Shown here in pieces: positions 1,866 through 39,385 of a stretch of 64,000 nt of DNA (positions are counted from its first letter, which is position 1; the number at the start of each line of letters is the position of its first letter). A program made the position numbers and the translations under genes. The stretch lies in assembly GCA_963789635.1 (NCBI GenBank), contig CAWBLF010000003.1, forward strand, positions 140,364 to 204,363, given 5' to 3'. The stretch comes from an uncultured bacterium. Lineage in GTDB: Bacteria; Patescibacteriota; Minisyncoccia; Phycocordibacterales; Zambryskibacteraceae. The notes under the pieces were generated by a model. It did no database searches, was not told where the DNA came from, and saw nothing but the letters and a program-made list of their open reading frames with translations.

Positions 1866-2600
1866 ATGATTGAAATCATTCCGGCAATTATTCCAAAAAG
1901 TTTTGAGGATTTAAACGAGCATCTGGGGCTTGTGGCAGGATTAGTGCCGCTTGTCCAAATTGATATTACGGACGGAAAGTTTACTTCCTCAAAATCTTGG
2001 CCATATATAAAAAATCCGGATCCTGACTTTGTAAAAATTATTCGTGAAGAAGAGAGTTTCCCGTATTGGGAAGAGTTGGAATTTGAGTTTCATCTTATGG
2101 TGGCAAATCCACAGGATTATGTTCAAGAATGGATTTCTGCTGGCGCACAAAGAATCATCGTCCATTATGAGTCTTTTGCCGGCACCAATGAAGCAAAAGC
2201 CTTTGCGGATAAATTTCAAAAAGAATTTGGAAAGAACGGATCCACCATAGGGACAGAACTTGGTATCGCTTTGGATATGAAGACCGATACATCTGTTTTA
2301 GATTCAATTATTGAGAAATTTGATTATGTGCAATTTATGGGTATAGACCATGATGGTGAGCAAGGTGTCGCTTTCGATGAAAAAGTTCTGGACAAAATCC
2401 GTTCACTGCGTTCTTTTTCACCAAAATTACCCATAAGTGTGGATGGCGGGGTCACCCTGGATAACGCACCTAGGCTTATTGAAGCCGGAGCCACACGTCT
2501 TGTCATCGGCTCGGCAATCTTTCAGAGTGATGATATTCCGGGAACCATCGAAGACTTTGAAAGTATTGGCAATGATACCGAGGCAGGCCTTGAGGCATAG
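1866..2600 (+). CDS. rpe: ribulose-phosphate 3-epimerase family protein (divergent)
   Basis: TIM-barrel epimerase-like pattern: DITDGKF, HLMV, VH.E, VDGGV, GSAIF. Sits in a pentose-phosphate gene context. Confidence 0.6.
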   Translation: MIEIIPAIIPKSFEDLNEHLGLVAGLVPLVQIDITDGKFTSSKSWPYIKNPDPDFVKIIREEESFPYWEELEFEFHLMVANPQDYVQEWISAGAQRIIVHYESFAGTNEAKAFADKFQKEFGKNGSTIGTELGIALDMKTDTSVLDSIIEKFDYVQFMGIDHDGEQGVAFDEKVLDKIRSLRSFSPKLPISVDGGVTLDNAPRLIEAGATRLVIGSAIFQSDDIPGTIEDFESIGNDTEAGLEA

Positions 2601-2672
2601 CCTCGGCATGGTTGTTATCGAGGCTTAGCCTTGAGAATTGAAACTAAGGCTAAGCCCTCGGTAACCATATGT
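2583..2672. repeat. CGAGG/CCTCG-core modular palindromic repeat cluster (copy region R1)
   Basis: gaggcatagcctcgg ... cgaggcttagccttgagaattgaaactaaggctaagccctcgg. The middle part is the reverse complement of the module ccttagtttcaa(a)ttctcaaggctaagcctcg seen at 26729 and 31639. Overlaps the rpe stop codon. Confidence 0.8.
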
Positions 2673-2720
2673 ATTTCATCCTAGGCAACCTTCGTTATGT
2701 TACAATAATGTCATAAATCT

Positions 2721-3590
2721 ATGGCGAATTTGGATGACTCAAAAATAAAAGAGCTCGAAGTCACCGCGAACAATATTCGTGAATCGATAATAGAAATGCT
2801 TCTCGAAGCGAAAAGCGGGCATACTGCCGGTCCCCTAGGTATGGCGGATATTTTCACATACCTTTATTTTTACGGACTGAAGCATGACCCCAAGAACCCT
2901 TTTTGGCCGGAGCGCGACAGACTGATCCTTTCCAACGGTCATATTTGTCCGGTGCTTTATGCCACTATGGCGCACGCAGGGTATTTTTCGGTGGACGAAC
3001 TGAAAACCTTGCGCAAATTTGGTACACGCCTACAAGGCCATCCGCATCGTGAATGGCTTCCTATACTCGAAACTTCTTCTGGTCCACTCGGTGAGGGATT
3101 GTCACAGGCGGTTGGTATGGCGCTTGCGGATAGGATTGACAATGGCACCTCATCGGGCAAGTTCTTTTATTGTTTGATGGGGGACGGCGAGCTTGACGAG
3201 GGCGTAAACTGGGAAGCTATGATGCTGGCCGGCAAAGAAAAAATTCATAACCTTATTGCGGTGGTGGATCGCAATAATATTCAGATTGACGGTTTTACAG
3301 AAAATATTATGCCTCTTGATTCACTCAAGGCGAAGTGGGAAGCCTTCAATTGGCACGTGGTGGAATGTTCAGGGCATGATTTTCGTGCTATAGACGAAGC
3401 TTTTGCCGAAGCGAAAGGAGTTTTTGAAAGACCGTCGGTCATCATTGCACACAATATTCCGGGCAAAGGGGTGAAAGAGTTTGAACGCAGATTTGAATGG
3501 CATGGAAAACCACCCAATAAGGAGGAAGCGGATATGGCCTTGCGTGAATTGCGCACTTTGGGCGGAAAAATAATGAGCGAGCATCAATAA
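2721..3590 (+). CDS. tkt: transketolase, N-terminal (thiamine-diphosphate binding) subunit
   Basis: 289 aa with GHP, GDGELDEG and N..IAVVDRN motifs. Followed by the C-terminal subunit gene. Confidence 0.9.
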   Translation: MANLDDSKIKELEVTANNIRESIIEMLLEAKSGHTAGPLGMADIFTYLYFYGLKHDPKNPFWPERDRLILSNGHICPVLYATMAHAGYFSVDELKTLRKFGTRLQGHPHREWLPILETSSGPLGEGLSQAVGMALADRIDNGTSSGKFFYCLMGDGELDEGVNWEAMMLAGKEKIHNLIAVVDRNNIQIDGFTENIMPLDSLKAKWEAFNWHVVECSGHDFRAIDEAFAEAKGVFERPSVIIAHNIPGKGVKEFERRFEWHGKPPNKEEADMALRELRTLGGKIMSEHQ

Positions 3591-3605
3591 TTTTCAAAAG
3601 ATAAA

Positions 3606-4613
3606 GTGTTAAATAAAGATTTAAAATTAAATACAAAGATTTTCACCGCAGATGTGGAACAAATTCCGATCCGCAAAGGTTTTGGCGAGGGTCTGGCTAT
3701 TGCGGGAGAACAAAATGTAAATGTGGTCGGACTTTGCGCTGACCTGACCGAATCTACCCAGATGTATATGTTTAAAGACAAGTTTCCTGAAAGATTTATT
3801 GAAATTGGTGTTGCAGAGCAAAATTTGGCCGGAGTGGCGAGTGGTATGGCAGCGATGGGGAAAATCCCATTCATTACATCGTACGCAATGTTTTCTCCTG
3901 GAAGAAATTGGGAACAAATCAGAACGACTATTGCCTACAACAATCGTCCCGTAAAAATTGCCGGCTCACACGCTGGCGTGTCTGTGGGTCCCGATGGAGG
4001 AACGCACCAAGCCATTGAAGATATCGCTATAACCCGTGTCATACCGCGTATGGTCGTCATTTCTCCATGTGATGCCACAGAGGCCAAGAAAGCGACAATT
4101 GCCCTCGCCAAGACAGACACACCCGTATATCTTCGTCTTGCCCGTGAGAAGACTCCGGTGATGACCACCGAAGACACCCCATTTGAAATCGGCAAGGCGC
4201 AAATTTTCTGGGATTCATCACTTGGAAGCCGAGCTTCCAAGTTGGAAGTGACTATCATTGCCACTGGCGCGTTGGTTTACAAAGCTCTTCTAGCAGCTAA
4301 AAAATTGGAAGCGGAAGGAATCGGTTCAATAGTTATAAATCTGGCAACTATCAAACCACTTGATGAAGAAACTATTTTGACTGCCGTGAAGCGTGCTTCG
4401 AGTGTGGTAACGGTAGAGGAGCATCAAATAATCGGCGGTATGGGTTCAGCGATTGCCGAGTTGCTCGCCCAAAAATTTCCAGCACCCCAAGAATTTATTG
4501 GTGTCCACGATCAATTTGGTCAATCTGGAAACATGGACGAACTTATTGAACACTATGGTCTTGATGACAAATCAATTGTTGAAGCGGTAAAAAAAGTAAT
4601 CAGTAGACAGTAG
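3606..4613 (+). CDS. tkt: transketolase, C-terminal (pyrimidine-binding plus C-terminal domain) subunit
   Basis: 335 aa with IEIGVAEQN and GPDGGTHQAIEDIA motifs. GTG start. Confidence 0.9.
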   Translation: MLNKDLKLNTKIFTADVEQIPIRKGFGEGLAIAGEQNVNVVGLCADLTESTQMYMFKDKFPERFIEIGVAEQNLAGVASGMAAMGKIPFITSYAMFSPGRNWEQIRTTIAYNNRPVKIAGSHAGVSVGPDGGTHQAIEDIAITRVIPRMVVISPCDATEAKKATIALAKTDTPVYLRLAREKTPVMTTEDTPFEIGKAQIFWDSSLGSRASKLEVTIIATGALVYKALLAAKKLEAEGIGSIVINLATIKPLDEETILTAVKRASSVVTVEEHQIIGGMGSAIAELLAQKFPAPQEFIGVHDQFGQSGNMDELIEHYGLDDKSIVEAVKKVISRQ

Positions 4614-4635
4614 CAAACAACAATGAAATCAAAAG

Positions 4636-4712
4636 GTCAGACCTTGACTTCCCGAGGCATTAGCCTTAAGAGGACTTACCAAGGCTAAGCCTCAAGGCCG
4701 AACCTTTCAATC
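4636..4712. repeat. CGAGG/CCTCG-core modular repeat cluster (R2)
   Basis: aaggtcagacctt ... cccgaggcattagccttaag aggacttaccaaggctaagcctcaagg. Shares the aggctaagcct and gaggcattagcctta modules with the other regions. Confidence 0.7.
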
Positions 4713-4721
4713 CTTAATTCC

Positions 4722-4949
4722 ATGAAACTCAAACCAGGAATTTACAAACACGCGAAGTCTGGGAATGAATACCGCGTTATCGATGTTGCAAAGCATTCCG
4801 AAACGCTTGAAGATATGGTGGTCTATGAAGCTTTATACAAAAACGAGCTGTCAAAACTTTGGGTTCGCCCACTAAGTATGTTTACCGAAGAAGTCGAAAT
4901 CGACGGCTCAAAGACTCCCCGTTTTGTTTTCCTCCGTGATTCAAACTAA
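4722..4949 (+). CDS. DUF1653-like small protein
   Basis: 75 aa. The pattern G.YKH.K.G..Y.V...A.HSET.E..VVY.ALY is typical of DUF1653. Confidence 0.65.
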   Translation: MKLKPGIYKHAKSGNEYRVIDVAKHSETLEDMVVYEALYKNELSKLWVRPLSMFTEEVEIDGSKTPRFVFLRDSN

Positions 4950-4966
4950 CTTCTAACCTCTAACTT

Positions 4967-5965
4967 CTAGCTTAGCAATTTCGGTCTATAGCTTTCCGGT
5001 GCTTCTTTCAATAGTTTTTCCAAATCGGGTCTTGTAAGGAGACCTTTTTGCGCACCGACTTGCTGGACCACGGACATTGAGTTAATCGGTCCCCATGACA
5101 GAGCTTGCGGAATACTCAAATCTAGAGCCAAGGCGACAACGAAAGTTGAAGCAAAGGCATCACCCGCTCCAGTGCGGTCATATGGAGGTTTCGGGTCGGG
5201 GTACGTAGGCATAAACCAGGTTTCCATATCATCAAATGCATAAGCACCGTTTGATCCGTCGGTAATAACAACGATTTTTGGTCCGAGCGCGGCAATCTTC
5301 GGTAGAAGCTCCACCGCTTCAATATCTTCTTCAATCCCCAGGATTCTGCGGGCCTCTTCCACGTTGCAGAAAAAAACTTCTGTGCGTTTGTAAAGTTCTG
5401 CCAGTTCCGAAAGAGGGAATCCCATCTGAAATGTCCCGGGTTGAAAAGCAAGTTTGATGTCGGGATGCTGTTTTAGATATTCCACAAGCTCTTTGTGGTA
5501 TGGGAGAGAGTTTGGGGCAAGTGAAGACAGATATACCCATTTCGGATTGCCAAAATCCGGCAACGAGTAGTTGTATTCCTGATGTTTTACCAGAATGGTG
5601 CGGTCGGCTTCGTACCAAAGCACATAGTGATAATTGGTCTCCATATTTTCATTTGTTTTGACAAACTCCGTCGATACAGAATTCCCTTTGAGTGCCTCCA
5701 GACACTCCTTGCCGTTTGTATCATCGCCGATGTTTGCCACCAAGGCCGAAGAGAGACCAAGACGGGAGGCCGATACAGCGGCGTTGGCCGAATTGCCCAC
5801 CGCTCGTATGACGTCAACCGACTCGTAAGGCACCTTGTCGCCAAAACGCAAAGAAATGAGGCACTTCTCATGGTTTATATCGCAATTGACGCTTGCGTCT
5901 TTGATGCGAATAAATGCGTCGGTAACCATGTCGCCGATAGCGACAAAATCAAAATTATTATTCAT
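4967..5965 (-). CDS. PfkB-family carbohydrate/nucleoside kinase
   Basis: 332 aa. N-terminal AIGD..TD and the C-terminal PfkB signature DRTGAGDAF. Confidence 0.8.
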   Translation of the reverse strand: MNNNFDFVAIGDMVTDAFIRIKDASVNCDINHEKCLISLRFGDKVPYESVDVIRAVGNSANAAVSASRLGLSSALVANIGDDTNGKECLEALKGNSVSTEFVKTNENMETNYHYVLWYEADRTILVKHQEYNYSLPDFGNPKWVYLSSLAPNSLPYHKELVEYLKQHPDIKLAFQPGTFQMGFPLSELAELYKRTEVFFCNVEEARRILGIEEDIEAVELLPKIAALGPKIVVITDGSNGAYAFDDMETWFMPTYPDPKPPYDRTGAGDAFASTFVVALALDLSIPQALSWGPINSMSVVQQVGAQKGLLTRPDLEKLLKEAPESYRPKLLS

Positions 5966-6014
5966 GAGATAAGTATAGCAAAAATTTTTAATGCGAGAAC
6001 TTAACTATATTGAG

Positions 6015-6032
6015 GCATTAGCCTTAAAATCT
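6015..6032. repeat. single repeat module (ttgaggcattagccttaa) in the divergent pfkB/fba spacer
   Basis: Same gaggcattagcctta module as at 4653-4670. Confidence 0.5.
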
Positions 6033-6066
6033 TTATTCACTATTCCTTATTCGGAAAATTTGGTCA

Positions 6067-6081: not shown

Positions 6082-6951
6082 ATGAAAACACTCAGAGAAT
6101 ACGTAACCGAAGCTGAAGGAAATAAGGTAGCCATAGGTCATTTCAATATCTCAAACATAGAAGGATTCTGGGCAATAGTACGCGCTGCCAAAGCCCTTTC
6201 TCTGCCGGTCATCATCGGGGTTTCTGAAGGCGAGCGCGATTTTATCGGCGTCAAACAAGTGCGGGCTTTGGTCACAGCCACAAAAAAAGAGCTAGATATG
6301 CCCATATTTCTCAACGCCGATCACACCTATTCTTTTGAAAGGGTAAAAGAAGCAGTGGATGCCGGTTTTGATTCGGTTATTTTTGACGGAGCCAAACTTA
6401 GTCTCGAAGAAAACATAGCGCAAACCAGGGAATGTGTGGAATATGCCAAGTCTCAAAATCCGGATATTCTCGTGGAAGGAGAGCTGGGTTATATCGGCCA
6501 ATCATCCAAACTTCTTGATGCGATTCCGGAGGGTGTGAATTTAAATCCGAGCGCTCTCACATCTCCGGAGCACGCAAAAGAGTTTGTAGACGCCACCGGT
6601 ATCGATATGTTGGCTCCTGCTGTCGGCAATTTTCACGGAATGTTGAAGGTGGGCAACGATCCTCGTCTGGACATTCCACTAGTCAAAGCTATTCGCGATG
6701 CGGTGGGTATTCCGCTCGTGCTTCACGGAGGTTCGGGAAATGTCGCAGAGGATTTCACCGACTCCATAAAGGCGGGGATTGCTATTGTGCACATCAATAC
6801 CGAGATTCGTGTGGCATACAGAGATGCTTTACGACTTGAACTTCAAGAAAACCCGGATGAAGTGGCTCCTTACAAAATAATGAAGCCTTCAGTTTTGGCC
6901 ATGCAAAAAGTGGTAGAGGGAAAATTAAAATTGTTTAACAATATCGCATGA
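6082..6951 (+). CDS. fba: class II fructose-1,6-bisphosphate aldolase
   Basis: 289 aa with GHFN, LNADHT and LVLHGGSG motifs. The TGA stop overlaps the next ATG (ATGA). Confidence 0.9.
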   Translation: MKTLREYVTEAEGNKVAIGHFNISNIEGFWAIVRAAKALSLPVIIGVSEGERDFIGVKQVRALVTATKKELDMPIFLNADHTYSFERVKEAVDAGFDSVIFDGAKLSLEENIAQTRECVEYAKSQNPDILVEGELGYIGQSSKLLDAIPEGVNLNPSALTSPEHAKEFVDATGIDMLAPAVGNFHGMLKVGNDPRLDIPLVKAIRDAVGIPLVLHGGSGNVAEDFTDSIKAGIAIVHINTEIRVAYRDALRLELQENPDEVAPYKIMKPSVLAMQKVVEGKLKLFNNIA

Positions 6952-7268
6952 TTATTTGGCCTTTTTTCATCGCGCTACTCATAGCATTTGAGCTTGTCGC
7001 AGATTTTTTTGCAAAGGAGTACTCACTAAGTGGTGGTTCCATTTTTTGGTTGGCGGCAATTGCCAGTTATATTATCGCCAATATTTTTTGGCTCACAGCG
7101 ATGAAAGACGGTTCAGGCTTAATTCGTGGAGCAAATATTTTTTCAGTGGGTAGTGCAATTATGGCGACACTTCTTGGATATTATTTTTTCCAAGAGAAAA
7201 TATCAAACTTACAGTTCGTTGGTGTTGTTATGGGTATTTTTGCACTCATTTTAATTTTTTCAAAATAA
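6948..7268 (+). CDS. small multi-pass membrane protein, SMR/DMT-like (EamA or ArnE/F-like)
   Basis: 106 aa with about four hydrophobic helices. Start codon overlaps the fba stop. Confidence 0.5.
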   Translation: MIIWPFFIALLIAFELVADFFAKEYSLSGGSIFWLAAIASYIIANIFWLTAMKDGSGLIRGANIFSVGSAIMATLLGYYFFQEKISNLQFVGVVMGIFALILIFSK

Positions 7269-7271
7269 ATT

Positions 7272-8945
7272 ATGTACGAAGATCTAAAATCAAAAATTTC
7301 CGGGGAACTAATGACCGATGATGCCACACTGGCCAAATACAGTCACGACGCCAGTCTGCTCGAAGTCAGGCCCAAAGCGGTAGTCCATCCCAAAGACGCA
7401 AGTGACATCAAAGCTGTAGTCAAATATGTCGCGGAACACAAGCAGTCTGACCCATCGATTTCTGTAACGGCGCGAGCGGCTGGAAGTTGTATGGCCGGGG
7501 GATCGTTAAATGAATCAATCATTCTTGATATTACTACTCATATGCAGGGAATCTTGGGTTTTGAAGGAGAATCGGCTCGTATATTGCCGGGAACTTTTTA
7601 CCGTGATTTTGAAAAAGAAACACTTGCCCGCAATCTTTTATTACCTTGCTTTACCGCTTCCAAAAATCTCAATACATTGGGAGGAATGATCGGCAACAAT
7701 AGCGCCGGTGAAAAAACATTGCGATATGGCAAAACGGAAGATTATTTGATGGAAACAAAGACGGTTTTTGCCGATGGCAATGAATACATGGTCAAACCAC
7801 TTTCAAAGGGTGAGCTTGAAGCCAAAATCACTCAAGGTGATTACGAAGGAAATATTTACAAAGGAATTTGGGAATTAATTGATAAAAACAAAGATGTGAT
7901 AATGGCAGGCAAGCCTAACGTCTCAAAAAACTCAGCAGGTTATTATATTTGGAATGTCGTAGCTTCTGACGAAGAAAGAAGCGGAGATCCTGAGCAAGGC
8001 GAAGGACGGGAAAAATTCTTTGATCTCAACAAGTTGATTGTGGGTTCTCAAGGCACACTAGGCATAGTGACCGAGGCAAAACTAGGTCTAGTGCCGGTAA
8101 AAAACGAAACAAAACTATTTGTCATATTCCTGCCATCGCTTGATAGGGTCAGCGAAGTGGTAAACAAAGTTCTCCCTCTGGATCCGGAAACCATCGAGTC
8201 ATACGACGATGCCACTATGAAGCTCGCCGTAAAGTTTTTCCCGGAAATGGTAAAGACAATGAAGGCCAGCTTTCTCAAAATGATGTGGGAATTTATTCCC
8301 GAGGCGGAGATGATTGTAACCGGAGGAATTCCAAAACTTATTTTACTAGTGGAATTTACTGAAACTTCTATGTCGGAAGTGGATAGAAAAATCGCCGATC
8401 TTTCTGAAAGAGTAAAACATTTTGGTTTCAAGACGCACATAGTGGAATCAAAAGACGAAGCTGAAAAATATTGGGCAATTCGTCGTGAAAGTTTCAATTT
8501 ATTACGAAACCACGTTCATGGTCGTCGTACTGCACCGTTTGTAGACGATGTCATAGTCAAACCGGAGTTTATGCCGGAGTTTTTGCCTAAGATGAGGGCT
8601 ATTTTGGACAGCTACAAACTGACCTATACTATTGCCGGTCATGCCGGAAATGGTAATTTCCACATTATTCCACTTATGGACATGCACGATGCCCACAATG
8701 TAGATGTCATTATGGAGGTGGGGGAGAAGGTATACGATCTAATTGCGCAGTATCACGGTTCTATCACCGCTGAGCACAACGACGGTATTGTCCGCACTCC
8801 ATACCTGCACAAAATGTATAGTCCACAAATTTTGGATATTTTTAAGCAAATCAAAAATATTTTCGATCCCGATAATATTTTTAACCCTGGCAAAAAAGTA
8901 AACGGGTCATTGGAATATTTTAAAAGTCATATAGCTAGAGAGTAG
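7272..8945 (+). CDS. FAD-binding oxidoreductase (GlcD / D-lactate dehydrogenase-like)
   Basis: 557 aa. The N-terminal FAD-binding PCMH-type pattern and the C-terminal HAGNGNFH and AEHNDG motifs are typical of FAD-linked oxidases. Confidence 0.75.
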   Translation: MYEDLKSKISGELMTDDATLAKYSHDASLLEVRPKAVVHPKDASDIKAVVKYVAEHKQSDPSISVTARAAGSCMAGGSLNESIILDITTHMQGILGFEGESARILPGTFYRDFEKETLARNLLLPCFTASKNLNTLGGMIGNNSAGEKTLRYGKTEDYLMETKTVFADGNEYMVKPLSKGELEAKITQGDYEGNIYKGIWELIDKNKDVIMAGKPNVSKNSAGYYIWNVVASDEERSGDPEQGEGREKFFDLNKLIVGSQGTLGIVTEAKLGLVPVKNETKLFVIFLPSLDRVSEVVNKVLPLDPETIESYDDATMKLAVKFFPEMVKTMKASFLKMMWEFIPEAEMIVTGGIPKLILLVEFTETSMSEVDRKIADLSERVKHFGFKTHIVESKDEAEKYWAIRRESFNLLRNHVHGRRTAPFVDDVIVKPEFMPEFLPKMRAILDSYKLTYTIAGHAGNGNFHIIPLMDMHDAHNVDVIMEVGEKVYDLIAQYHGSITAEHNDGIVRTPYLHKMYSPQILDIFKQIKNIFDPDNIFNPGKKVNGSLEYFKSHIARE

Positions 8946-9755: not shown

Positions 9756-9810
9756 AAGCGGCATTTAATAACGCTTGTTCTATAAATATTTCTTAATAAT
9801 TTTGTTAGTT

Positions 9811-9848
9811 TGCACAAAAAAGACGGACTATTCCGTCTTTTTTGTGCA
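9811..9848. terminator. 17-bp perfect-stem hairpin downstream of rplY
   Basis: tgcacaaaaaagacgga / ctat / tccgtcttttttgtgca. A- and T-runs are built into the stem, so it could terminate in both directions. Confidence 0.6.
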
Positions 9849-9906
9849 CGCATAATTATTGTCACTTTATATTTTGGTCAAAATGAGTTAAAATTGATAC
9901 TGACTC

Positions 9907-26507: not shown

Positions 26508-26559
26508 GGCCTAAATATAACAGAAAATAGATTTTTTGAAAAAGAAAAATAGTTTCATA

Positions 26560-30865: not shown

Positions 30866-31458
30866 GGCAAAACTACGCAAGCGTGAATGGAATTTTGGGA
30901 ATTGATGAGGCGGGCAGAGGGCCATTGGCCGGGCCTGTCGCGGTCGGGGCTGTATATATTCGACCAAAAGCAAAATTATCGTTTTGCGGTTTGAAAGATT
31001 CCAAACAACTTTCGGCTATTGCAAGAGAAGGATGGTTCAACAAAATAAAAAAGTGGCAAAAGGAAAACAAATTGCGATATTCAGTATCCCTTGTTTCCCA
31101 TTCCGTCATCGATAGGGAAGGCGTAGTTTCGGCCATTGATCTGGGTATTAATAGGTGCTTAAAAAAAATTATTGTCCCGCCAAACAAAACTCAGGTGATG
31201 CTCGACGGCGGGTTGGGAGCTCCAACACGATTTATTAATCAAAAAACAATTATTCGGGGCGATGAAAAAATCGCCGTTATTGCATTGGCTTCAATAGTGG
31301 CAAAAGTGACAAGAGACAGACATATGGAAAGAATGTCACTAAAATATCCGAAATATGGTTTTGAAATCCATAAAGGATATGGCACATTGAAGCACAGGAG
31401 GGCAATCAAGAAGTTCGGTCACTCCCGGATTCATAGAAAAACTTTCACGGTTTCCTAG
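30862..31458 (+). CDS. rnhB: ribonuclease HII
   Basis: GIDEAGRGPLAGPV, DSK.L and KGYG motifs. Its ATG overlaps the pilin TGA (ATGA). Confidence 0.9.
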   Translation: MRQNYASVNGILGIDEAGRGPLAGPVAVGAVYIRPKAKLSFCGLKDSKQLSAIAREGWFNKIKKWQKENKLRYSVSLVSHSVIDREGVVSAIDLGINRCLKKIIVPPNKTQVMLDGGLGAPTRFINQKTIIRGDEKIAVIALASIVAKVTRDRHMERMSLKYPKYGFEIHKGYGTLKHRRAIKKFGHSRIHRKTFTVS

Positions 31459-31478
31459 GTTTAATCTTTTAACTTTTT

Positions 31479-31752
31479 TGGTCACCGATTTAATTCCCGA
31501 GCAATCGCCTTAATACAGACAATTTTAGGTCACCGAGGACTTAGCAAAAGTATTTTTCTGGTGAAAAATCTTTTTCCCATACCTCGTCCCGCCTTTGCGG
31601 GACTCCGGTCTTGCGAAGCTCCAAGTATTCGCTTCTCACCTTAGTTTCAAATTCTCAAGGCTAAGCCTCGATGCCTAAAATACAGGCCCTCAAGGCTAAG
31701 CCTCGATATCTAAATGCAAGGCGAAACCTCGAGAATTTAAGGCTGAGCCTAG
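31479..31752. repeat. CGAGG/CCTCG-core modular repeat cluster (R5) containing the second 151-bp element
   Basis: 31526-31676 is identical to 26616-26766. Flanked by aattcccgagcaatcgcc, tacaggccctcaaggctaagcctcgat and ggcgaaacctcgagaatttaaggc modules. Confidence 0.9.
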
Positions 31753-31802
31753 AATACATTGTAACTTGTGTTTTCTGGCTCATCAGGTATACTCAATTCA
31801 CT

Positions 31803-32027
31803 ATGGTTGTACGAATGCGACACACGAGATCTCACACGGGAAACCGTAGATCTCATCACAGAATAGCTACCGTCAGGGTAACCAAGGACGAAAGTGGCAC
31901 AGCCCACGTTCGTCATCGTATGAACCCAACGACGGGTAAATATCGTGGCCGTATGGTCACGGACGTTATAAGTATCAAAGCGAAAAAGGCGGCAAAACAA
32001 AAGGCAAAAGCTTCGTCAGTAAAATAA
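31803..32027 (+). CDS. rpmF: 50S ribosomal protein L32
   Basis: MVVRMRHTRSHTGNRRSHH N-terminus typical of L32. The upstream part of the tracked ORF is repeat sequence. TATACT at 31788-31793 lies 9 nt upstream of the ATG. Confidence 0.85.
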   Translation: MVVRMRHTRSHTGNRRSHHRIATVRVTKDESGTAHVRHRMNPTTGKYRGRMVTDVISIKAKKAAKQKAKASSVK

Positions 32028-32049
32028 TTTTTTGTAGTTTCTTCGCCAT

Positions 32050-32964
32050 ATGGCAAACCGGCACCTTGCAAGATCAGTGGTAATGCAGACACTCTTCGAA
32101 TGGGACTTCGCAAAACGATCCCGTGAAGAGGCATTTGGCATACTCAAACGAAACAAAGATGAGTTTGCTCCAGGGGTTACCGAAACATCCTTTATGGACG
32201 GTCTTTTGGAATCCGTTTTGGACAAGCAAAAGGACATTGACAGCATCATTACCAAAGCGGCACCCGATTGGCCAATTGAAAAAATATCAGTGATTGATCG
32301 CAATATTTTGCGATTGGGTCTTTCGGAATTGCTCTTCTCCGACGCAGAACAAGTGCCACCAAAAGTGGCTATCAACGAAGCCATTGAGCTAGCAAAATCA
32401 TTCGGTGGAGAAACATCGGGTAAATTTGTAAACGGAGTCCTCGGCGCAGTCTACAAAGAAATGGGGGAACCCGGCAAAGACGAAGTTTCCACCAAGAAAA
32501 AAACAATCAAGAATATTCCAGATGACAAGCTGACCATCGAAGACCTAGGTGGGGCTCTGGTTTATTCTATTTATGAAGGTGTCATATATTTGGCTTTGGT
32601 TCATGATGTCTTCGGTCACTGGACTCTTTCAAAAGGAAAGCTGGAAAATGGCGAGTCGGTGAAAGACGGGACAACACGAGAGATAAAAGAAGAGATTGGT
32701 ATTGATATAAATATTGAAGAAGATTTGGGGACAAACGAATACATTGCATTTCATCCGGAGAAAGGTAAGCTGAAAAAAAGAGTTCATTACTTTCTTGCAA
32801 AAGCGGACTTTCAGCCACTGACACTTGAAGCTCACGAGTCTCGTGGCGGATTGACTGACGCGCAATGGTTCCCGGTAGAAAAAATCGGCGAACTCAATTT
32901 TTATGACGATATCATGCCGTTGGTGACCAAAGGCATTGAAATGATGGGAAAGAAGGAAGTTTAA
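32050..32964 (+). CDS. nusB: NusB antitermination factor fused to a C-terminal NUDIX hydrolase domain
   Basis: The first ~145 aa carry NusB motifs (R..A.Q.LF..DF, DRNILRLG..EL, INEAIELAK.FG). The C-terminal part carries a Nudix box, GKLENGESVKDGTTREIKEEIGI. Confidence 0.8.
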   Translation: MANRHLARSVVMQTLFEWDFAKRSREEAFGILKRNKDEFAPGVTETSFMDGLLESVLDKQKDIDSIITKAAPDWPIEKISVIDRNILRLGLSELLFSDAEQVPPKVAINEAIELAKSFGGETSGKFVNGVLGAVYKEMGEPGKDEVSTKKKTIKNIPDDKLTIEDLGGALVYSIYEGVIYLALVHDVFGHWTLSKGKLENGESVKDGTTREIKEEIGIDINIEEDLGTNEYIAFHPEKGKLKKRVHYFLAKADFQPLTLEAHESRGGLTDAQWFPVEKIGELNFYDDIMPLVTKGIEMMGKKEV

Positions 32965-32993
32965 AAGTTTTGAAGTTTGTAAGTTTTTAAGTT
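32964..32993. repeat. left arm of an imperfect 30-nt inverted repeat bracketing the second four-helix-bundle gene
   Basis: aaagttttgaagtttgtaagtttttaagtt pairs with 33346-33375 at 26 Watson-Crick pairs plus 1 G-U out of 30. Begins at the last base of the nusB stop codon. Confidence 0.8.
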
Positions 32994-33368
32994 ATGGCCA
33001 CAAGACTAGAGAATCTAAAAATATATCAGATGGCGCGTGAGCTGGAACTTCGGGTTTTTGAATTAACGAAAAGTTTTCCAACCGCAGAAAATTTTAGAAG
33101 CATAGATCAATTGCGCCGTTCGTCTTCATCTGTTACCAATAACATTGCTGAATCTTATAACAAGAAGTCAATAAAGGATAAAATAAGAATTATTAATGAT
33201 ATTGTTAAGGGTGAAGCAAACGAAACAAGGTCTAATCTTGAAATGTTTCAAGAAAAGAAGTTTTTCAAAGACCAAAATCTGATTGATAGATACACAGAAC
33301 TCATAAAAGCAGTCAGCGGATATATAGCATTTCTCAAAACTTCTCAACTTAACAACTTATCAACTTAA
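32994..33368 (+). CDS. four-helix-bundle protein (23S rRNA intervening-sequence protein / S23p / Avd-like family)
   Basis: 124 aa with L.IYQ.A.EL...V..LT..FP and DQLRRSSSSV.NNIAE motifs. Confidence 0.85.
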   Translation: MATRLENLKIYQMARELELRVFELTKSFPTAENFRSIDQLRRSSSSVTNNIAESYNKKSIKDKIRIINDIVKGEANETRSNLEMFQEKKFFKDQNLIDRYTELIKAVSGYIAFLKTSQLNNLST

Positions 33369-33375
33369 AAACTTT
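33346..33375. repeat. right arm of the inverted repeat bracketing the second four-helix-bundle gene
   Basis: aacttaacaacttatcaacttaaaaacttt. Overlaps the ORF's 3' end and stops 3 nt before the rnc ATG. Confidence 0.8.
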
Positions 33376-33378
33376 TTT

Positions 33379-34075
33379 ATGGACGGTTTTAATCAATTTG
33401 AAGAACGAATAGGTGTGATTTTCGAAAATAAAAACTTGCTCAAGCAGGCGTTTGTTCATCGTTCATATTTAAATGAAAACAAAGAATTTCCTCTAGGCCA
33501 CAATGAACGTCTGGAGTTCCTCGGAGACGCAGTTCTTGAACTGGTGATTACCGACTATCTTTACACCAAATACCCCGAGAAAAACGAAGGAGATATGACA
33601 TCGCTTCGCTCTGCCTTGGTCAACGCCACCGCTCTTCATAAAGTGGGTGCCAGATATTGGTATCAATGACCTACTTCTGCTCTCCCGAGGTGAATCTAAG
33701 GACCTTGGGCGTGCTCGTCAGTACATTCTTGCCAATACAATGGAGGCATTGATTGGCGCCATTTACCTTGACCGTGGATATGATATGGCCAAGAAATTTA
33801 TTTATGAATTCATAACTCCGCTTTTGGACAAAGTGATTGAAGACGAAAGCTGGATTGACTCCAAGAGTTTATTCCAAGAAAAAGCCCAAGATCATGCAGG
33901 GGTAACTCCCGCATATCAAACCTTGAAAGAAACTGGTCCCGACCACGACAAGCATTTCACAGTCGGCGTGTATTTGAAAAATGAACTCATTGCTCAAGGC
34001 GAAGGGGATTCCAAACAGGAAGCGGAGCAGGCAGCAGCTCACAATGCTCTCAAGGCAAAAGGTTGGAATAATTGA
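33379..34075 (+). CDS. rnc: ribonuclease III, interrupted by an apparent 1-nt insertion (+1 frame change) near 33650-33652
   Basis: Frame 1 gives NERLEFLGDAVLEL ... LRSALVNATALHKVGA. Frame 2 continues DIGINDLLLLSRGE ... MEALIGAIYLD plus a C-terminal dsRBD. Removing one base from gcca restores VGADIGIN. Confidence 0.85.
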
Positions 34076-34161
34076 TTTTCTCAATAACAGAATCCACATT
34101 ATATTTTAAGCGCTAAATAGTGCTATAATTTTATATATAAATTTTAGTCGACCGACATTCC

Positions 34162-36432
34162 ATGCTGCTTAAATCTATAGAAATATCCGGATTCAAGTCT
34201 TTTGCCAAGAAAGATTCTCTCACATTCAATACGCCAATTTCGGCAATTGTCGGTCCAAACGGTAGTGGAAAGTCCAACGTTGCCGAGGCATTTCGCTTCG
34301 TGCTAGGCGAGCAATCTATCAAGAGTCTTCGCGGTAAAAAGGGTGAAGACCTTATATTCAATGGTGCCGGGGAAGGGGCAAGGGCCAACAGAGCTTCGGT
34401 CAAGGTGACATTTGATAATTCCCAGAAAATTTTTGCTTTGGATTTTCCAGAGGTGCAGATAGAGCGTGTGGTTCATCGTGATGGCATCAATGAATATTTG
34501 ATAAACGGCTCACAAGTGCGTTTGCGCGACATCATTGAGCTTCTAGCGGGGGCGCACATAGGCTCATCCGGTCATCACATAATTTCTCAAGGTGAAGCAG
34601 ACAGAATTCTCAATAGCTCTCTGCGTGAACGCAGGGCGATGCTCGAAGACGCTCTTGGTCTAAAAATCTATCAATATAAGCGGGCAGAGAGTGAGCGTAA
34701 ACTAGATAAGACATTAGAAAATATTCAGTCTGTCGAAAGTCTACGCAAGGAAATTGCTCCACATCTTCGTTTTCTGAAAAAACAAGTTGAGAAGATGGAA
34801 AAAGCAGTGAGTATGAAGGATGAACTCAAGAACCTTTCTCGCGAATATCTCAAACGTGAGGATACTTTCATACAAGATTCAAAAAAAGCCATTATGGATG
34901 AACGGAAGCCTCTTTCCGACAAAAAATCCAACCTTGAGAGTGAAATGGCCAAGGCCAAAGAAGTATTGGAGTCGTCGAAGAACAAAGACGAAAAAAGTGA
35001 CAAAATAATTGCGCTTGAGACAAGTATTCGCGATGCGCGAAGCGAGAAAGACCGATTACTCCAAGAGATGGGCAAACTTGAAGGAGAGATTGCATCCGAG
35101 CGCAGAATTCTTGCCAAGCAGAAAGAGATTCTTTCTTCAAATGAACACAAGACGGTTGCGCTTCGAGATGTGGAAGATCTTGTTAAGAAGATAGACGTGT
35201 CAATTGTAGAAGCCGAAAAGAGTGTTGATATTTCTTTTGTAAAAAACACGCTCAACATTTTGCGTTCCACCCTGAATGATTTTATTGGCAGTAAAAAAGA
35301 GGAGACCAATGACACGGTTGTGAAAGAATCAGAAGCCGCTCTTGTTGCACTCGGTAAGACAAAGACGGAAACTGAAACAAAACTTTCAGTAATCAAGACA
35401 AAGGAAGAAGAGCTTCAAAGAGAGTATCAAAGTCTTCAAAAAGACATAGAAAAAGCCAAGGATTCTAGCCGTGATGCGGAAAAAGCACTGTTTCGCATAA
35501 TGTCAGAACAAAACGAGGTATCGGGAGCATTGGCGCTCTTACTTGCACGTGAAGAGGGTCTGCGTACTGTAGAAGAAGATTTCAAAAGGGAACTGGAAGA
35601 GTGCGCAATGCTTGCGGGGAGAGGGGTGTTGGACTTTAAATCCTTCGCTCTCGCTCAGGACAAACCCCCCGAGGTCACGAGAGGTTCGCAGGAAGAACGC
35701 AGACGAAATATTGAGAAAATCAAGATTCGTCTTGAAGAGGCAGGACTTTCTGGAAGTGGAGAAATAATGAAAGAGTTTCAGGAAACATCGGAGCGCGATG
35801 CATTTTTGGAACGGGAGCTGACAGATCTTGATAAATCAGCAGAATCTCTCCACCAGCTTATCGTGGAGCTGGGCGAAAAACTTGATATTGAATTTAAGGA
35901 AGGAATAACAAAAATTAATAAACAATTTGGCGAATTTTTTGCGTTGATGTTTGGTGGAGGCAAAGCCATACTCAATGTCATCAAAGAAAAAAAGAGAATA
36001 AAGAAAGAGACAGACGATCTACTACTGACAACTGACAATGAACAAGAAGAAGAAATAGTTGAGGACGAGGCAACCGAAGATGGCATAGATATTGAAGTGT
36101 CGTTGCCAAGGAAGAAAATCAAAGGATTGGCCATGCTTTCTGGTGGGGAGAGAGCTCTCACATCTATAGCGCTTCTTTTTGCAATATCGCAAGTAAATCC
36201 ACCGCCATTTATCATTCTTGATGAAACGGATGCGGCGCTCGATGAGGCAAATTCCAGAAAATACGGCGATATGGTGGAAAACTTGGCCAAATATTCTCAA
36301 CTAATTTTGATTACGCACAATCGCGAGACGATGTCGCGAGCAGGTGTGATTTATGGAGTGACCATGGGAAGTGCTGGGGTTTCCAAAATTCTTTCTATTC
36401 AATTTGAAGAGGCGGTAGAAGTGGCCAAGTAG
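34162..36432 (+). CDS. smc: SMC-family chromosome partition ATPase, unusually short (756 aa), no recognisable hinge
   Basis: Walker A GPNGSGKSN, signature LSGGERALT, Walker B FIILDETDAALD. A long coiled coil lies between the head halves. Confidence 0.8.
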   Translation: MLLKSIEISGFKSFAKKDSLTFNTPISAIVGPNGSGKSNVAEAFRFVLGEQSIKSLRGKKGEDLIFNGAGEGARANRASVKVTFDNSQKIFALDFPEVQIERVVHRDGINEYLINGSQVRLRDIIELLAGAHIGSSGHHIISQGEADRILNSSLRERRAMLEDALGLKIYQYKRAESERKLDKTLENIQSVESLRKEIAPHLRFLKKQVEKMEKAVSMKDELKNLSREYLKREDTFIQDSKKAIMDERKPLSDKKSNLESEMAKAKEVLESSKNKDEKSDKIIALETSIRDARSEKDRLLQEMGKLEGEIASERRILAKQKEILSSNEHKTVALRDVEDLVKKIDVSIVEAEKSVDISFVKNTLNILRSTLNDFIGSKKEETNDTVVKESEAALVALGKTKTETETKLSVIKTKEEELQREYQSLQKDIEKAKDSSRDAEKALFRIMSEQNEVSGALALLLAREEGLRTVEEDFKRELEECAMLAGRGVLDFKSFALAQDKPPEVTRGSQEERRRNIEKIKIRLEEAGLSGSGEIMKEFQETSERDAFLERELTDLDKSAESLHQLIVELGEKLDIEFKEGITKINKQFGEFFALMFGGGKAILNVIKEKKRIKKETDDLLLTTDNEQEEEIVEDEATEDGIDIEVSLPRKKIKGLAMLSGGERALTSIALLFAISQVNPPPFIILDETDAALDEANSRKYGDMVENLAKYSQLILITHNRETMSRAGVIYGVTMGSAGVSKILSIQFEEAVEVAK

Positions 36433-36440
36433 GTCGACAA

Positions 36441-36590
36441 TAGGTCACCGAGGACTTAAATTCCCAAGGAATTGCTTTAATACAGGCCCTCAATTTTAGG
36501 TCACCGAGGACTTAAATTCCCGAGGAATCGCCTTAATACAGGCCCTCAAGGCGAAACCTCGAGAATTTAAGGCTAAGCCTCGATGCCTTA
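36441..36590. repeat. CGAGG/CCTCG-core repeats (R6): one half element (36441-36493) plus one full 95-nt nested hairpin element (36496-36590)
   Basis: ttaggtcaccgaggactta-aattcccgaggaatcgcc-ttaatacaggccctcaa-ggcgaaacctcgagaatt-taaggctaagcctcgatgcctta. Confidence 0.9.
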
Positions 36591-36648
36591 ATTATCCTTC
36601 ACAAAGCTCAGGATTAAGAAAAATATAGTCACTTCGCTCCTTATTTTT

Positions 36649-38574
36649 CTAAACAAAAACAAAATCAAGAATTCTTTTGTCCAAATCTGCGGCAATTAAT
36701 TTTATGCGGACTTTATCGCCCAGAGTGTATTTCTTTTTGGTTGCAGTACCTACCACCGCATAGTTCTTTTGGTCTAGAACATAATTGTCATCGGTCATAT
36801 TGCGGAATCGCACCATTCCCTCGGCTTTGGTTTCAGTTTCTTCCACATAGACGCCCCACTCTGACACACCGGAAATAGTAGCGTCAAATTCCTTGCCTAT
36901 GTTGCCAAGCATAAACTCAACTTGTTTGTATTTGATTGAAGCGCGTTCTGCATCAGAAGCGGCAATTTCTTTTTGCGTTGCATCATCTGCCATTCGCTGG
37001 TAGGTAGCCATTTCGTCGGGATCAACTTTACCTTTATTTAGAAATCTGTAGAGCAATCTATGCACAAGTAAGTCTGGATATCTGCGAATGGGTGAAGTGA
37101 AGTGAGTGTAGTAGGTGAAGCCCAGACCAAAGTGGCCAATATTGCGAGTAGAATAAACCGCTTTCGCCATTGAGCGAATAGCCGCTGTTTTGATAAGAGA
37201 TTCCTCCGGCTTTCCCTCCACTTGCTTAAGCAGTTTGTTCATATCAGCAGCCGTGATTTCGCCATCTTCGGCATCAAGGTCGTAGCCAAGTGCTTTGATA
37301 AAAACCCCCAAGTTCATTATTTTTTCTTTATCAGGCTCATCGTGAATACGATAAATAAAAGGACTTTTTGATTTGGTATTTTCAATTTCTTTATACATAT
37401 ATTCCGCTACCGAGCGGTTGGCCAAAAGCATATATTCTTCAATCATCTTGTTCGTATCCTGACGGATTTTTTTGTAAACACGAATGGGCTTGCCATCGGC
37501 ATCCAGTTCAAACTTCACCTCGTCGGTTTCAAACTCAATGGCGCCGTTTTCAAATTTTTCTGCCTGAAGTTTCTTTCCAATTTGATTCATTATATTTAAC
37601 TCGTCATAGTAGAGACCTTTCTTGGCATCTAGAATAGCTTGCGCTTCTTCGTATGAAAATCTTTTATCAGAGTGTATGACTGTCTTGCCGTACCACCTGT
37701 CGTGAACCTTTCCATTGTCATCAATGACAACAACAGTGGAGAAAGTAAAGCGTTCAACATCTTCATTCAAACTGCATAAGTCATTGGACAAAATTTCCGG
37801 CAACATCGGAATAGTGCGGTCCACAAGATAGACAGATGTTCCACGTTTGCGAGCCTCTTTGTCCAGAATTGTGCCTGGTGTGACGTAGTGAGATACATCG
37901 GCTATATGTATTCCAATTTCATATTTGCCATCAGATAATTTCTTGAAAGACAAAGCGTCATCAAAGTCTTTGGCATCTGCCGGGTCGATGGTGAAAGTAA
38001 GGGTATCACGGAAGTCTTTGCGTTTGGCAACCTCGTTTGCCCAGTCGGCTTGTTTTTCCTTGGCAATGCGCGCAGCGTCCTCTTCTACTTCTTTAGGAAA
38101 TTCATCTTCGAATCCTCGTTCAAGGATGATGGCTTCCATTTCCACATTGTGGATACCTTTACGCCCGAGTACCTTAACGACCTTACCCTCCGGACTTTTC
38201 ATGGGGTCTTTCCAGCTGGTCATTTCCACCTGAACTTTATCTCCGTCCTTGGCTCCTTTGGAGTTTGAAACGTGCACAAATATGTCTTTGTACATACGCC
38301 TGTCGTCGGGTTTGAGAAAAAAGAAATCTTTTGTTTGCGTCAAAGTTCCTACAAACTGTATTTTGGCGCGCTTGATTATTTTTATGACCTCTCCTTGTCG
38401 TCTTATATTCTCCTGAACAGGCAAAATTTTTATCTCCACCTCATCATTATTTAATGCGGTTTTGAGGAGCGGTGTTTGAATTTCTATATCATTGGGTAAT
38501 CCTTCCACAGTGAAATAGCCGACTCCTCGGCCACTGACAGTTATTGATCCCGTGTATGTCTTTTTTTCCTCCAT
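36649..38574 (-). CDS. rnr: ribonuclease R (RNB-family 3'-5' exoribonuclease)
   Basis: 641 aa. Cold-shock/OB N-terminus, RNB core (DP.DAKDFDDALS, RSMAKAVYS, GHFGLG...YTHFTSPIRRYPDL) and a C-terminal S1 domain. Confidence 0.9.
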   Translation of the reverse strand: MEEKKTYTGSITVSGRGVGYFTVEGLPNDIEIQTPLLKTALNNDEVEIKILPVQENIRRQGEVIKIIKRAKIQFVGTLTQTKDFFFLKPDDRRMYKDIFVHVSNSKGAKDGDKVQVEMTSWKDPMKSPEGKVVKVLGRKGIHNVEMEAIILERGFEDEFPKEVEEDAARIAKEKQADWANEVAKRKDFRDTLTFTIDPADAKDFDDALSFKKLSDGKYEIGIHIADVSHYVTPGTILDKEARKRGTSVYLVDRTIPMLPEILSNDLCSLNEDVERFTFSTVVVIDDNGKVHDRWYGKTVIHSDKRFSYEEAQAILDAKKGLYYDELNIMNQIGKKLQAEKFENGAIEFETDEVKFELDADGKPIRVYKKIRQDTNKMIEEYMLLANRSVAEYMYKEIENTKSKSPFIYRIHDEPDKEKIMNLGVFIKALGYDLDAEDGEITAADMNKLLKQVEGKPEESLIKTAAIRSMAKAVYSTRNIGHFGLGFTYYTHFTSPIRRYPDLLVHRLLYRFLNKGKVDPDEMATYQRMADDATQKEIAASDAERASIKYKQVEFMLGNIGKEFDATISGVSEWGVYVEETETKAEGMVRFRNMTDDNYVLDQKNYAVVGTATKKKYTLGDKVRIKLIAADLDKRILDFVFV

Positions 38575-38623
38575 TAAGAAATTTTGTCTAATATATCAGA
38601 AAACCTGATACTTCGCATCTTAG

Positions 38624-38652
38624 TTGACCACGTTTGGCTATTCTGTTAATAT
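38624..38652 (+). promoter_or_regulatory. sigma-70-like promoter of rpsP (TTGACC - 17 nt - TAATAT)
   Basis: The -10 box ends 9 nt upstream of the ATG at 38662. No SD sequence. Confidence 0.55.
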
Positions 38653-38661
38653 GTGCACCAC

Positions 38662-39138
38662 ATGTTAAAGATTCGATTACAGAGGGTGGGACGCAAACAC
38701 GAACCGACGTTTCGTGTCGTTTTGACTGACTCAAAAAATAGCACCAAGAGTGGGCGTTTTCATGAAGTTCTTGGCTCTTATGACCCTCGTAAAAAGACTG
38801 AAGTTTTTGAGGGAGAACGTATCAAAGAATGGATGGGGAAGGGTGCTAAAGTTTCCGGTACTGTGCACAATCTCCTTGTTTCTCACAAAATAATTTCAGG
38901 GAAGAAAATAAACGTTCTTCCTAAGAAGTCACCGATATCAAAAGTCAAAGTTGCAGATGAAGTTCAGGCAGTTGATAAGGTGGCCGTAGACAAGGGGGAA
39001 ACTGAAGCCATCGCGAAAGAAGTCGTAGCGGAGGCAGCGCCATCGGAAGTTACGGCAGAGCCGGTAGCCAATCCTGAAATAAAAGACGAAGTTGTTCCAG
39101 CTCCAGAGCTTCCGGTTACTCCCGAAGGAACTGAATAG
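38662..39138 (+). CDS. rpsP: 30S ribosomal protein S16 with a long acidic/proline-rich C-terminal extension
   Basis: MLKIRLQRVGRKHEPTFRVV start, and YDPR. Confidence 0.9.
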   Translation: MLKIRLQRVGRKHEPTFRVVLTDSKNSTKSGRFHEVLGSYDPRKKTEVFEGERIKEWMGKGAKVSGTVHNLLVSHKIISGKKINVLPKKSPISKVKVADEVQAVDKVAVDKGETEAIAKEVVAEAAPSEVTAEPVANPEIKDEVVPAPELPVTPEGTE

Positions 39139-39146
39139 ATTATCGG

Positions 39147-39385
39147 TAGGTCACAGAACAACGCAAAATTAAATTTTAGGTCACCATTAAATTCCCGATT
39201 AGGTCACCGAGGACTTAAATTCCCGAGGAATCGCCTTAATACAGGCCCTCAAGGCGAAACCTCGAGAATTTAAAGCTAAGCCTCGATGCCTTAGGTCACT
39301 GACAATAAATTCCCGAGGAATCGCCTTAATACAGACAATTTTAGGTCACCGACTTAGTTTCAAATTCTCAAGGCTAAGTCTCGGA
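39147..39385. repeat. CGAGG/CCTCG-core repeats (R7): several partial modules plus one full 95-nt element (39199-39293)
   Basis: 39199-39293 differs from 36496-36590 at one base. Additional taggtcac starts at 39147, 39177, 39292 and 39342. Confidence 0.9.

Follow-up and report, generated by a model that had tools for sequence, protein, structure and literature searches.

A 64-kb stretch of DNA from an uncultured member of the Zambryskibacteraceae, within the Patescibacteriota or Candidate Phyla Radiation (CPR), poses the question of how a compact bacterial genome comes to carry the same short palindromes in one spacer after another. This stretch (contig CAWBLF010000003.1 of 269,280 bp, positions 140,364 to 204,363) is the whole window that was analyzed, and all copy counts are limited to these 64 kb of the genome. 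Homologues of its RNase R assign the window to the Paceibacteria, close to “Ca. Zambryskibacteria.” An initial annotation had listed seven spacers built from six short modules, here termed A to F. On re-reading, each of the seven contains the described repeat material, with only a half-site at 6015–6032. We consider it probable that the repeats are lineage-restricted imperfect palindromes resembling repetitive extragenic palindromic (REP) sequences and bacterial interspersed mosaic elements (BIMEs), that they are located just 3′ of stop codons where they have expanded into nested mosaic arrays, and that they serve a role at 3′ ends.

A repeat family in intergenic regions

Exact or near-exact copies number seven for module A, seven or eight for B, five for C, four each for D and E, and six for F. 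A scan allowing up to four mismatches found the six modules many times between 26560 and 39385, in each case on the plus strand, and it recovered degenerate or reversed copies at 2583–2672 and 4636–4712. The 18-mer of module A, TAGGTCACCGAGGACTTA, has seven matches at two or fewer mismatches, compared with 0.00 expected from 100 dinucleotide-preserving shuffles. The head of this 18-mer, AGGTCAC, occurs 16 times (4.2 ± 1.7 expected), and 13 of these matches fall within arrays. Intergenic DNA, which makes up 11% of the window, holds 33 of the 93 CGAGG/CCTCG pentamers, and these are clustered in the named spacers. The repeats are real, and their number far exceeds chance.

A loose regular expression was too unspecific for counting copies and was replaced by a covariance model trained on nine hairpins. 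At E < 1e-6, this model yields 12 copies, all of which come from the window or from R1 and R2, two sister species. The window has no family copy between 39.4 and 64 kb by this model, and the seven sites all lie within 0–40 kb.

As the initial annotation had stated, six of the seven sites are located 3′ of a gene end, and the first repeat base falls between −25 nt and +21 nt relative to the stop codon. The remaining entry, 6015–6032, does not belong in the list on the same footing, being a single hairpin arm in a divergent 5′ region. Pfam agrees with the gene identities assigned earlier (rpe, the split tkt [tktN/tktC], dnaE, rnhB, smc, rpsP, and an mTERF domain), and it also supports pfkB, thrS, RNase R, and a KH protein among the flanking genes.

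Two paralogous hairpins

Two paralogous hairpins of ∼45–50 nt each, H1 and H2, account for all six modules, which are their arms and loops. These hairpins, and not the modules, are the natural units of the family. H1 is composed of the 3′ half of A, all of E, and the 5′ half of F (cCGAGGAcTTAGCCTT / AGTTTCAAATTCTC / AAGGCTAAgCCTCG), and H2 is composed of B, C, and D (CCGAGGAATCGCCTT / AATACAGGCCCTC / AAGGCGAAACCTCG). In both, the CGAGG/CCTCG box is on the outside and the GCCTT/AAGGC box on the inside, the inner boxes enclose a loop of 13–14 nt, and the two hairpins follow the common plan CCGAGG-nn-TnnGCCTT / 13–17-nt loop / AAGGCnAA-n-CCTCG. The basic element can be written as CCGAGG-nn-TTAGCCTT / AGTTTCAAATTCTC / AAGGCTAA-g-CCTCG. 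The stems of H1 and H2 are 14–15 bp long, and all copies lie in spacers. Many units start with TAGGTCAC, and truncated heads are found at 39147, 39177, 26767, 26889, and 39292. This anatomy agrees with the description of the modules as mutual inverted repeats, and 16 of the 19 positions of B are complementary to D. The statement that every module carries CGAGG or its complement fails for C and E, which are hairpin loops without this core.

A 95-nt compound unit has the structure A[B-C-D]F, in which H2 stands in place of the H1 loop. The fold of a single hairpin has an energy of −20 to −33 kcal/mol on either strand, and that of the 95-nt unit reaches −51 kcal/mol. Within arrays, the minus-strand fold is always the more stable one, regardless of the direction of transcription. 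Pairing is retained in 87.7% of the stem cells, and there are three doubly changed pairs, a number equaled by 12 of 500 shuffles. These values hint, if weakly, that stem pairing is maintained.

Single hairpins at the same sites in sister species

Four spacers (dnaE–thrS, rnhB–rpmF, smc–rnr, and rpsP–KH) were compared with their orthologous positions in the sister species. R1 is represented by loci L045–L047, L050, and L051, with a thrS protein that is 93% identical and gene segments that are ∼69%–84% identical in DNA. R2, the closest of the relatives sampled, is represented by L049 and L059, with protein identities of 94% for RNase R and 95% for thrS and a DNA identity of ∼85% over rnr.

The dnaE–thrS spacer of R2 contains one hairpin followed by T8 and is 120 nt long, compared with 478 nt in the window. 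There is one H1 hairpin at rnhB–rpmF in R2 and one at smc–rnr (spacer of 141 versus 216 nt), and rpsP–KH has two mini CCGAGG...CCTCGG hairpins (147 versus 341 nt). In R1, a hairpin is present at three of the four orthologous sites: one H1 plus a D-like hairpin at dnaE–thrS, one H1 in the opposite orientation at smc–rnr, set between outer arms in which 13 bases read as complementary, and one orthologous H1, CCGAGGCATTAGCCTTAGTTTCAAATTCTCAAGGCTAAGTCTCGGATTCAGC, at rpsP–KH. The fourth site in R1, rnhB–rpmF, is occupied by a four-gene island with no hairpin.

Since single hairpins occupy the same sites in R2 and R1, the arrays are recent expansions of pre-existing hairpin sites. At rpsP–KH, the right arm and flank of the last, truncated H1 of the window (CTTAGTTTCAAATTCTCAAGGCTAAGTCTCGGATTCAGC) are identical to those of the R1 orthologue, and the array was therefore added 5′ of a hairpin that had been inherited. 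Across 78 kb of sequence from four Paceibacteria that are more distant (L052–L055), the covariance model finds no family copy. One of these, L052, whose RNase R is 80% identical, has textbook terminators composed of a hairpin and a T-tract at three of these positions. Judging from these loci, the family arose in a narrow clade, usually with one copy per site, and the arrays are specific to the window genome. Comparison of the sequences establishes three parts of our reading, namely how the hairpins are built, how they are distributed among the lineages, and that they expanded at sites where a hairpin already stood.

The R1 island (L045 1779–4593, corresponding to 31459–31800 of the window) adds four genes between rnhB and rpmF, encoding an HTH_20 protein and three hypothetical proteins. 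With an island in R1 and only repeat DNA in the window and R2, this spacer seems to be a hotspot for gene gain and loss. Upstream of thrS, 40 nt are conserved in the three species (window 26508–26560; L045 9960–10000; L059 3050–3086). A −10-like TATATT ends ∼7 nt before the thrS ATG, which suggests a leaderless or near-leaderless mRNA. In R1, a 66-residue open reading frame (ORF) and a terminator-like hairpin lie ahead of this conserved stretch, where the window has its array. Distant Paceibacteria also have unrelated intergenic repeats of their own (L055 986–1107 / 5848–6054 and 1846–1922 / 4871–4959; L054 269–341 / 944–1016), which consist of AAATCTCAAATCT hairpins and of inverted-repeat elements 74–120 nt in length. 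Palindromic repeats peculiar to one species may be widespread in the class Paceibacteria.

Growth and layout of the arrays

We infer the means of spread from the arrangement of the copies. Single hairpins at operon ends would have grown in the window genome to mosaics of 150–480 nt through three processes. In nesting, the paralogous H2 (B-C-D) would replace the H1 loop to give the 95-nt unit, and elsewhere H1 would come to lie between outer stems. Local tandem duplication would account for the observed periods of 56 nt and 122 nt. Finally, copying between sites would occur by ectopic gene conversion or palindrome-templated rearrangement, or else by hairpin-targeted non-autonomous transposition. 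Three blocks are common to different loci: 151 nt at 100% identity (26616–26766 / 31526–31676), 95 nt at 99% identity (36496–36590 / 39199–39293), and 45 nt at 98% identity (31492–31536 / 39308–39352). The flanking genes are only ∼69%–90% identical to those of the sister species, whereas these blocks are 98%–100% identical between sites, and the copying is therefore likely to be recent. The nested arrangement fits insertion at hairpin apices, and template switching may give the same pattern.

A mini hairpin, CCGAGGC...GCCTCGG (2575–2609), recognized from its sequence and fold and from a weak covariance-model match of 13.6 bits, overlaps the last codons of rpe together with its stop codon. A single complete H1 is located 3′ of rpe at 2615–2664, reversed on the minus strand (74.3 bits, E 1.6e-16; fold of −29 kcal/mol). 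Between the convergent tktC and pfkB genes, the plus-strand site 4630–4712 has an H1 (4649–4698; 59.3 bits) nested in the outer stem AAAGGT..CCTTGA / TCAAGG..ACCTTT, and its full-length fold on the minus strand reaches −38.9 kcal/mol. The half-site relic in the divergent pfkB/fba promoter region (6011–6032, plus strand) has only the left arm, TTGAGGCATTAGCCTTAA. By eye, ∼17 of its 20 bases are the same as those at 4652–4671, and it has no covariance-model match.

The four arrays proper are all on the plus strand. The largest (26560–26990) extends from the dnaE stop codon, which module D overlaps, to the thrS start, and it reads F'-B-A-[X]-E-F-A'-B-C-A-E-F-A'-B-A-F''-D. It includes a 122-nt tandem duplication (26729–26850 / 26851–26972, 95% identity) and one intact H1 (26836–26886). 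The array between rnhB and rpmF (31479–31752) reads A'-B'-A-[X]-E-F-C-F-D, followed by a tail. In both, X denotes a module-free insert of 96 nt between A and E (26634–26729 and 31544–31639), and the two copies are 100% identical. The insert contains a perfect 7-bp hairpin, GTCCCGC-CTTT-GCGGGAC, and a 32-codon open frame on the minus strand whose stop falls in module A. It has no blastn or tblastx match in any fetched locus and no Rfam match, and the minus-strand frame is unmatched.

Between the convergent smc and rnr genes, the array (36441–36590) contains 1.9 copies of a 56-nt tandem repeat and has the 95-nt unit A[B-C-D]F at its end (36496–36590), with H2 at 36517–36565. The array between rpsP and a khpA-like KH gene (39147–39390) opens with three truncated TAGGTCAC heads, followed in order by a 95-nt unit at 39199–39293, A'-B-C', and a 5′-truncated H1. 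A promoter-like conserved site (39403–39431) is located 3′ of this array.

Assembly of the arrays

The repeats break short-read assemblies of these metagenome-assembled genomes and can mislead ORF callers, as exemplified by a 118-residue “L32” ORF that begins inside an array. The arrays could themselves be artefacts of a metagenome-assembled contig in which repeats were collapsed or sequences joined as chimeras. Run ERR12035936 gives Logan contigs that are 100% identical to the window over 24061–26619 and 26916–31532. Both reach 60–110 nt into arrays and then break at repeated k-mers, and these breaks in contigs of the same run count in favor of an artefact. Two housekeeping genes, rnc and a release-factor gene, are also split in the window, so some sequence errors are possible. 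However, the unique gene-to-repeat junctions are recovered at 100% identity in the independent Logan assembly, which confirms them. Moreover, two sister species, assembled separately from other samples, have the family at the same sites, and gene order is syntenic with the relatives across every array. We therefore view an artefact as highly improbable. The concern over chimeric assembly that came with the initial annotation is settled for the junctions and for the existence of the family, and it persists for the order inside the arrays.

The RNase III gene is split into overlapping ORFs in different frames (33379–33669 and 33647–34075), and rnc is a single gene of 231 residues in R1 and R2. 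The peptide-chain release-factor gene is likewise divided between frames (11674–12030 and 11925–12653), with the break near codon 100 and no CTTTGAC-type prfB shift site around the stop of the first ORF. Both splits may be true frameshifts or assembly indels.

A possible role at transcript ends

Enterobacterial REP elements form stable 3′ stem-loops that protect or mark transcript ends. By analogy, we infer that the repeats of the window act at the RNA level at transcript ends. Transcribed either way, the elements would form very stable 3′ stem-loops, which would mark or protect the ends of transcripts and insulate neighboring units. In doing so, the hairpins would partly replace the ordinary terminators seen at these positions in the more distant relative. 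The more specific suggestion that they are canonical terminators is not borne out, since most copies have no U-tract and textbook terminators are present in other spacers of the window. A terminator scan returns only two marginal sites within the arrays. Canonical terminators are located at 9810–9850, 14701–14735, 39845–39890, and 51586–51612, and clear ones follow rplY, tRNA-Thr, KH, and rpoD, among others.

Several observations weigh against REP/BIME-like hairpins that have spread and expanded with a role at 3′ ends. No transposase or recombinase of any kind is encoded in the window or in the fetched loci. Specifically, no REP-associated tyrosine transposase (RAYT; Y1 HUH, PF01797) is present among the Pfam-scanned window ORFs or the called genes of the R1, R2, L052, and L053 loci, which derive from incomplete genomes. 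Reading of the unit junctions reveals no target-site duplication, including at the flanks of the two 95-nt units (36488–36496 / 36591–36597 and 39193–39199 / 39294–39300). At the four spacers compared, there is no insertion at a naive site and no copy where both relatives are without a hairpin, and mobility to new sites is therefore at most a possibility. The copies were counted at seven sites of a single 64-kb window, and the order of modules inside the arrays comes from one assembly. Comparison of sense and antisense folds does not consistently favor the stability of the sense-strand RNA. Covariation is weak, with too little variation to decide, and selection on RNA structure is likewise at most a possibility.

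Some of these points are shared by a different explanation, which is that the hairpins are purely functional 3′-end structures, such as terminators, attenuators, or RNA-stability elements, and are immobile. One ancestral hairpin would have stood at each operon end and been retained by selection, concerted evolution through ectopic gene conversion would have kept the loci alike, and replication slippage at palindromes would have produced the arrays. This fits the lack of naive-site insertions, target-site duplications, and transposases, and it fits the location of all arrays at hairpin sites of R2, three of the four being hairpin sites in R1 as well. The run of eight T residues after the dnaE copy of R2 (the only copy with such a run), the stem ending in TTTTGATTT on the minus strand that holds the tktC/pfkB copy, and the terminators at the same places in L052 point in the same direction. 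In contrast, independent terminators would not have arm and loop sequences in common across loci and species. Most copies lack the U-tract that canonical terminators elsewhere in the window possess, copy orientation relative to transcription is not constant, and rnhB–rpmF of R1 has no hairpin. Furthermore, several hundred bases have been added to a compact genome for no obvious gain. On balance, we find purely functional, immobile hairpins rather unlikely.

The mTERF-like protein

The initial annotation had linked the arrays to an mTERF-like protein encoded in the same window (17718–18494). Its mTERF domain is genuine (Pfam E 5e-11), and the gene, which lies between pheS and pheT, contains near-identical 99-nt (33-residue) tandem repeats. 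Homologues are represented by 48 matches among 5.8 billion proteins. In L055, an mTERF gene (6831–7982) with 52% identity and six 99-nt repeats has the same pheS–mTERF–pheT position, and in L054 an mTERF gene (10001–11170) adjoins leuS. R1 has no mTERF gene between pheS and pheT. The two contigs with the closest mTERF homologues have their own, different repeats and no member of this family. The aminoacyl-tRNA synthetase neighbors and the fast-evolving repeats suggest that the mTERF-like protein is a modular nucleic-acid binder. The adjacent pheT gene (18507–20897) has an inserted NlpC/P60 peptidase domain (residues 352–415), as it does in R1.

If the arrays were DNA-binding sites at which this protein terminates or blocks transcription, then a genuine mTERF domain and near-identical 33-residue repeats would be expected of such a modular binder. 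Arrays and gene are both present in the window genome, and in R1 the arrays are missing, as is the gene at that locus. However, this co-occurrence comes from one genome only. Basic hairpins persist in R1 without the gene at the syntenic site, and L055 has the gene and no family copy. The sporadic homologues beside aminoacyl-tRNA synthetase genes in the fetched contigs also hint at a different role. These comparisons lend no support to the proposed link, which is speculative, and we judge binding sites of this kind to be very improbable. A broader proposal would have a new type of self-nesting mobile DNA entering the single-stranded apex of existing hairpins, whether terminators or earlier copies, by means of a CPR enzyme, or else would have the arrays as the cognate sites of the mTERF-like protein. 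If either were true, the genome would show such a system mid-burst, but we hold the proposal as a whole to be improbable.

Other features of the window

A TrpR-like gene (23637–24032, minus strand) has long perfect palindromes on both sides (23561–23604 and 24049–24090) with the common core CACTACAGTATACTGTAGTG. At the same two positions in R1 (L045 12429–12458 and 12945–12979) there is a different palindrome pair, TTTATCATATATGATAAA. These palindromes look like an operator pair that has co-evolved with the repressor.

A gene of the 23S_rRNA_IVP family is located between nusB and rnc in the window (32956–33374) and in R1 (L045 94–517), and it is absent in R2 (L049 6645–6814). From this distribution, it appears to behave like a small insertable cassette. 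The gene is flanked by inverted AAGTT-rich short repeats, and a second IVP-family gene is found at 865–1236.

Comparison with known systems

Rfam holds no described family that corresponds to these repeats, in agreement with the initial annotation, which had not recognized them. Only tRNA-Thr reaches the gathering score in the window, and a search of 26400–39600 at E ≤ 5 returned chance microRNA and small RNA models far below threshold. An exact-word scan of 185,579 species-representative genomes with the B 18-mer gave 18 single matches, and a scan of Joint Genome Institute (JGI) metagenome contigs with the A 17-mer gave 24. Two patterns searched in viral contigs gave 0 and 3 single matches. 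Since none of the matches in these three collections is accompanied by a second module, they are attributable to chance, and the source genome and the family are absent from these collections. Full-text literature searches found no description of repeats resembling REP sequences or miniature inverted-repeat transposable elements (MITEs) in CPR/Patescibacteria. Such repeats are under-described in these bacteria, whose genomes are usually seen as streamlined.

Two known kinds of repeat array were weighed for this host. Arrays of tandem interspaced guide RNA (TIGR), which are known in CPR bacteria, have two alternating repeats of 8–12 nt, variable spacers of 9 nt, a 36-nt period, and a neighboring Tas gene with a Nop domain (PMC12045711). 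The short alternating repeats might bring a guide-RNA array of the TIGR or CRISPR kind to mind. An array of DNA-uptake sequences could likewise be imagined, since CPR bacteria are presumed to rely on taking up DNA and the window has a pilin gene at 30296–30865. Against a guide-RNA array, the repeats are distributed over many housekeeping loci, they lack both a 36-nt period and variable spacers of 9 nt, and there is no Tas gene with a Nop domain. Uptake sequences are spread through coding DNA, whereas the repeats here occur only in seven spacers, with none in 24 kb of the window. Either identity is extremely improbable, and array anatomy effectively refutes the TIGR-Tas, CRISPR-like, and uptake readings.

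The initial annotation had compared the repeats to REP/BIME, Correia, or MITE-type elements, and only the first of these likenesses stands. MITEs such as the Correia elements of Neisseria, BOX and RUP of Streptococcus, and the palindromic elements (RPEs) of Rickettsia resemble the family in several respects. The ends of the 95-nt unit are imperfect inverted repeats, near-identical copies are found at separate loci, and the modularity recalls the boxA/B/C style of BOX. Unlike MITEs, the repeats show no target-site duplication, no parent insertion sequence (IS) was found, and there is no sequence similarity. In addition, coding DNA is free of copies except for the last codons of rpe and dnaE, and, at the four spacers compared, the site of every copy already bears a hairpin in relatives. 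Given these differences, membership in the MITE/Correia group is not supported.

Intrinsic terminators have in common with the family a position at operon ends and a G+C-containing stem-loop, and true terminators stand at these places in the distant relative. They differ in that most copies here have no U-tract, that arms and loops are common to different loci, and that canonical terminators coexist with the repeats in the window. Elements of the IS1397/ISKpn1 type insert into REP loops. The nesting of H2 in the H1 loop and of H1 in outer stems resembles such insertion at a palindrome apex, but there is no IS or transposase here, and template switching at palindromes would be equally able to nest.

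The closest counterparts are the REP sequences and BIMEs of Enterobacteria and Pseudomonas. The differences are that the sequence at hand yielded no RAYT (Y1/HUH) gene, that units open with TAGGTCAC or (C)CGAGG and not with a GTAG-type head, and that the clusters are nested or tandem on one strand, whereas BIME units alternate head-to-head and tail-to-tail. The loop sequence is also conserved here, and the repeats reside in the compact genome of a CPR bacterium. The series from an ordinary terminator in a distant relative, through a single hairpin in two sister species, to nested mosaic arrays in the window genome is useful for asking how BIME-like mosaics arise. Like REP sequences and BIMEs, the repeats are short imperfect palindromes that are extragenic and usually follow stop codons directly, are specific to one lineage as REP sequences are to a species or genus, occur singly or in mosaic clusters of a few motif types, and are predicted to form stable 3′ stem-loops in mRNA. 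The family thus joins the REP/BIME-like class as a new member confined to one clade, and it is not a new class of system.

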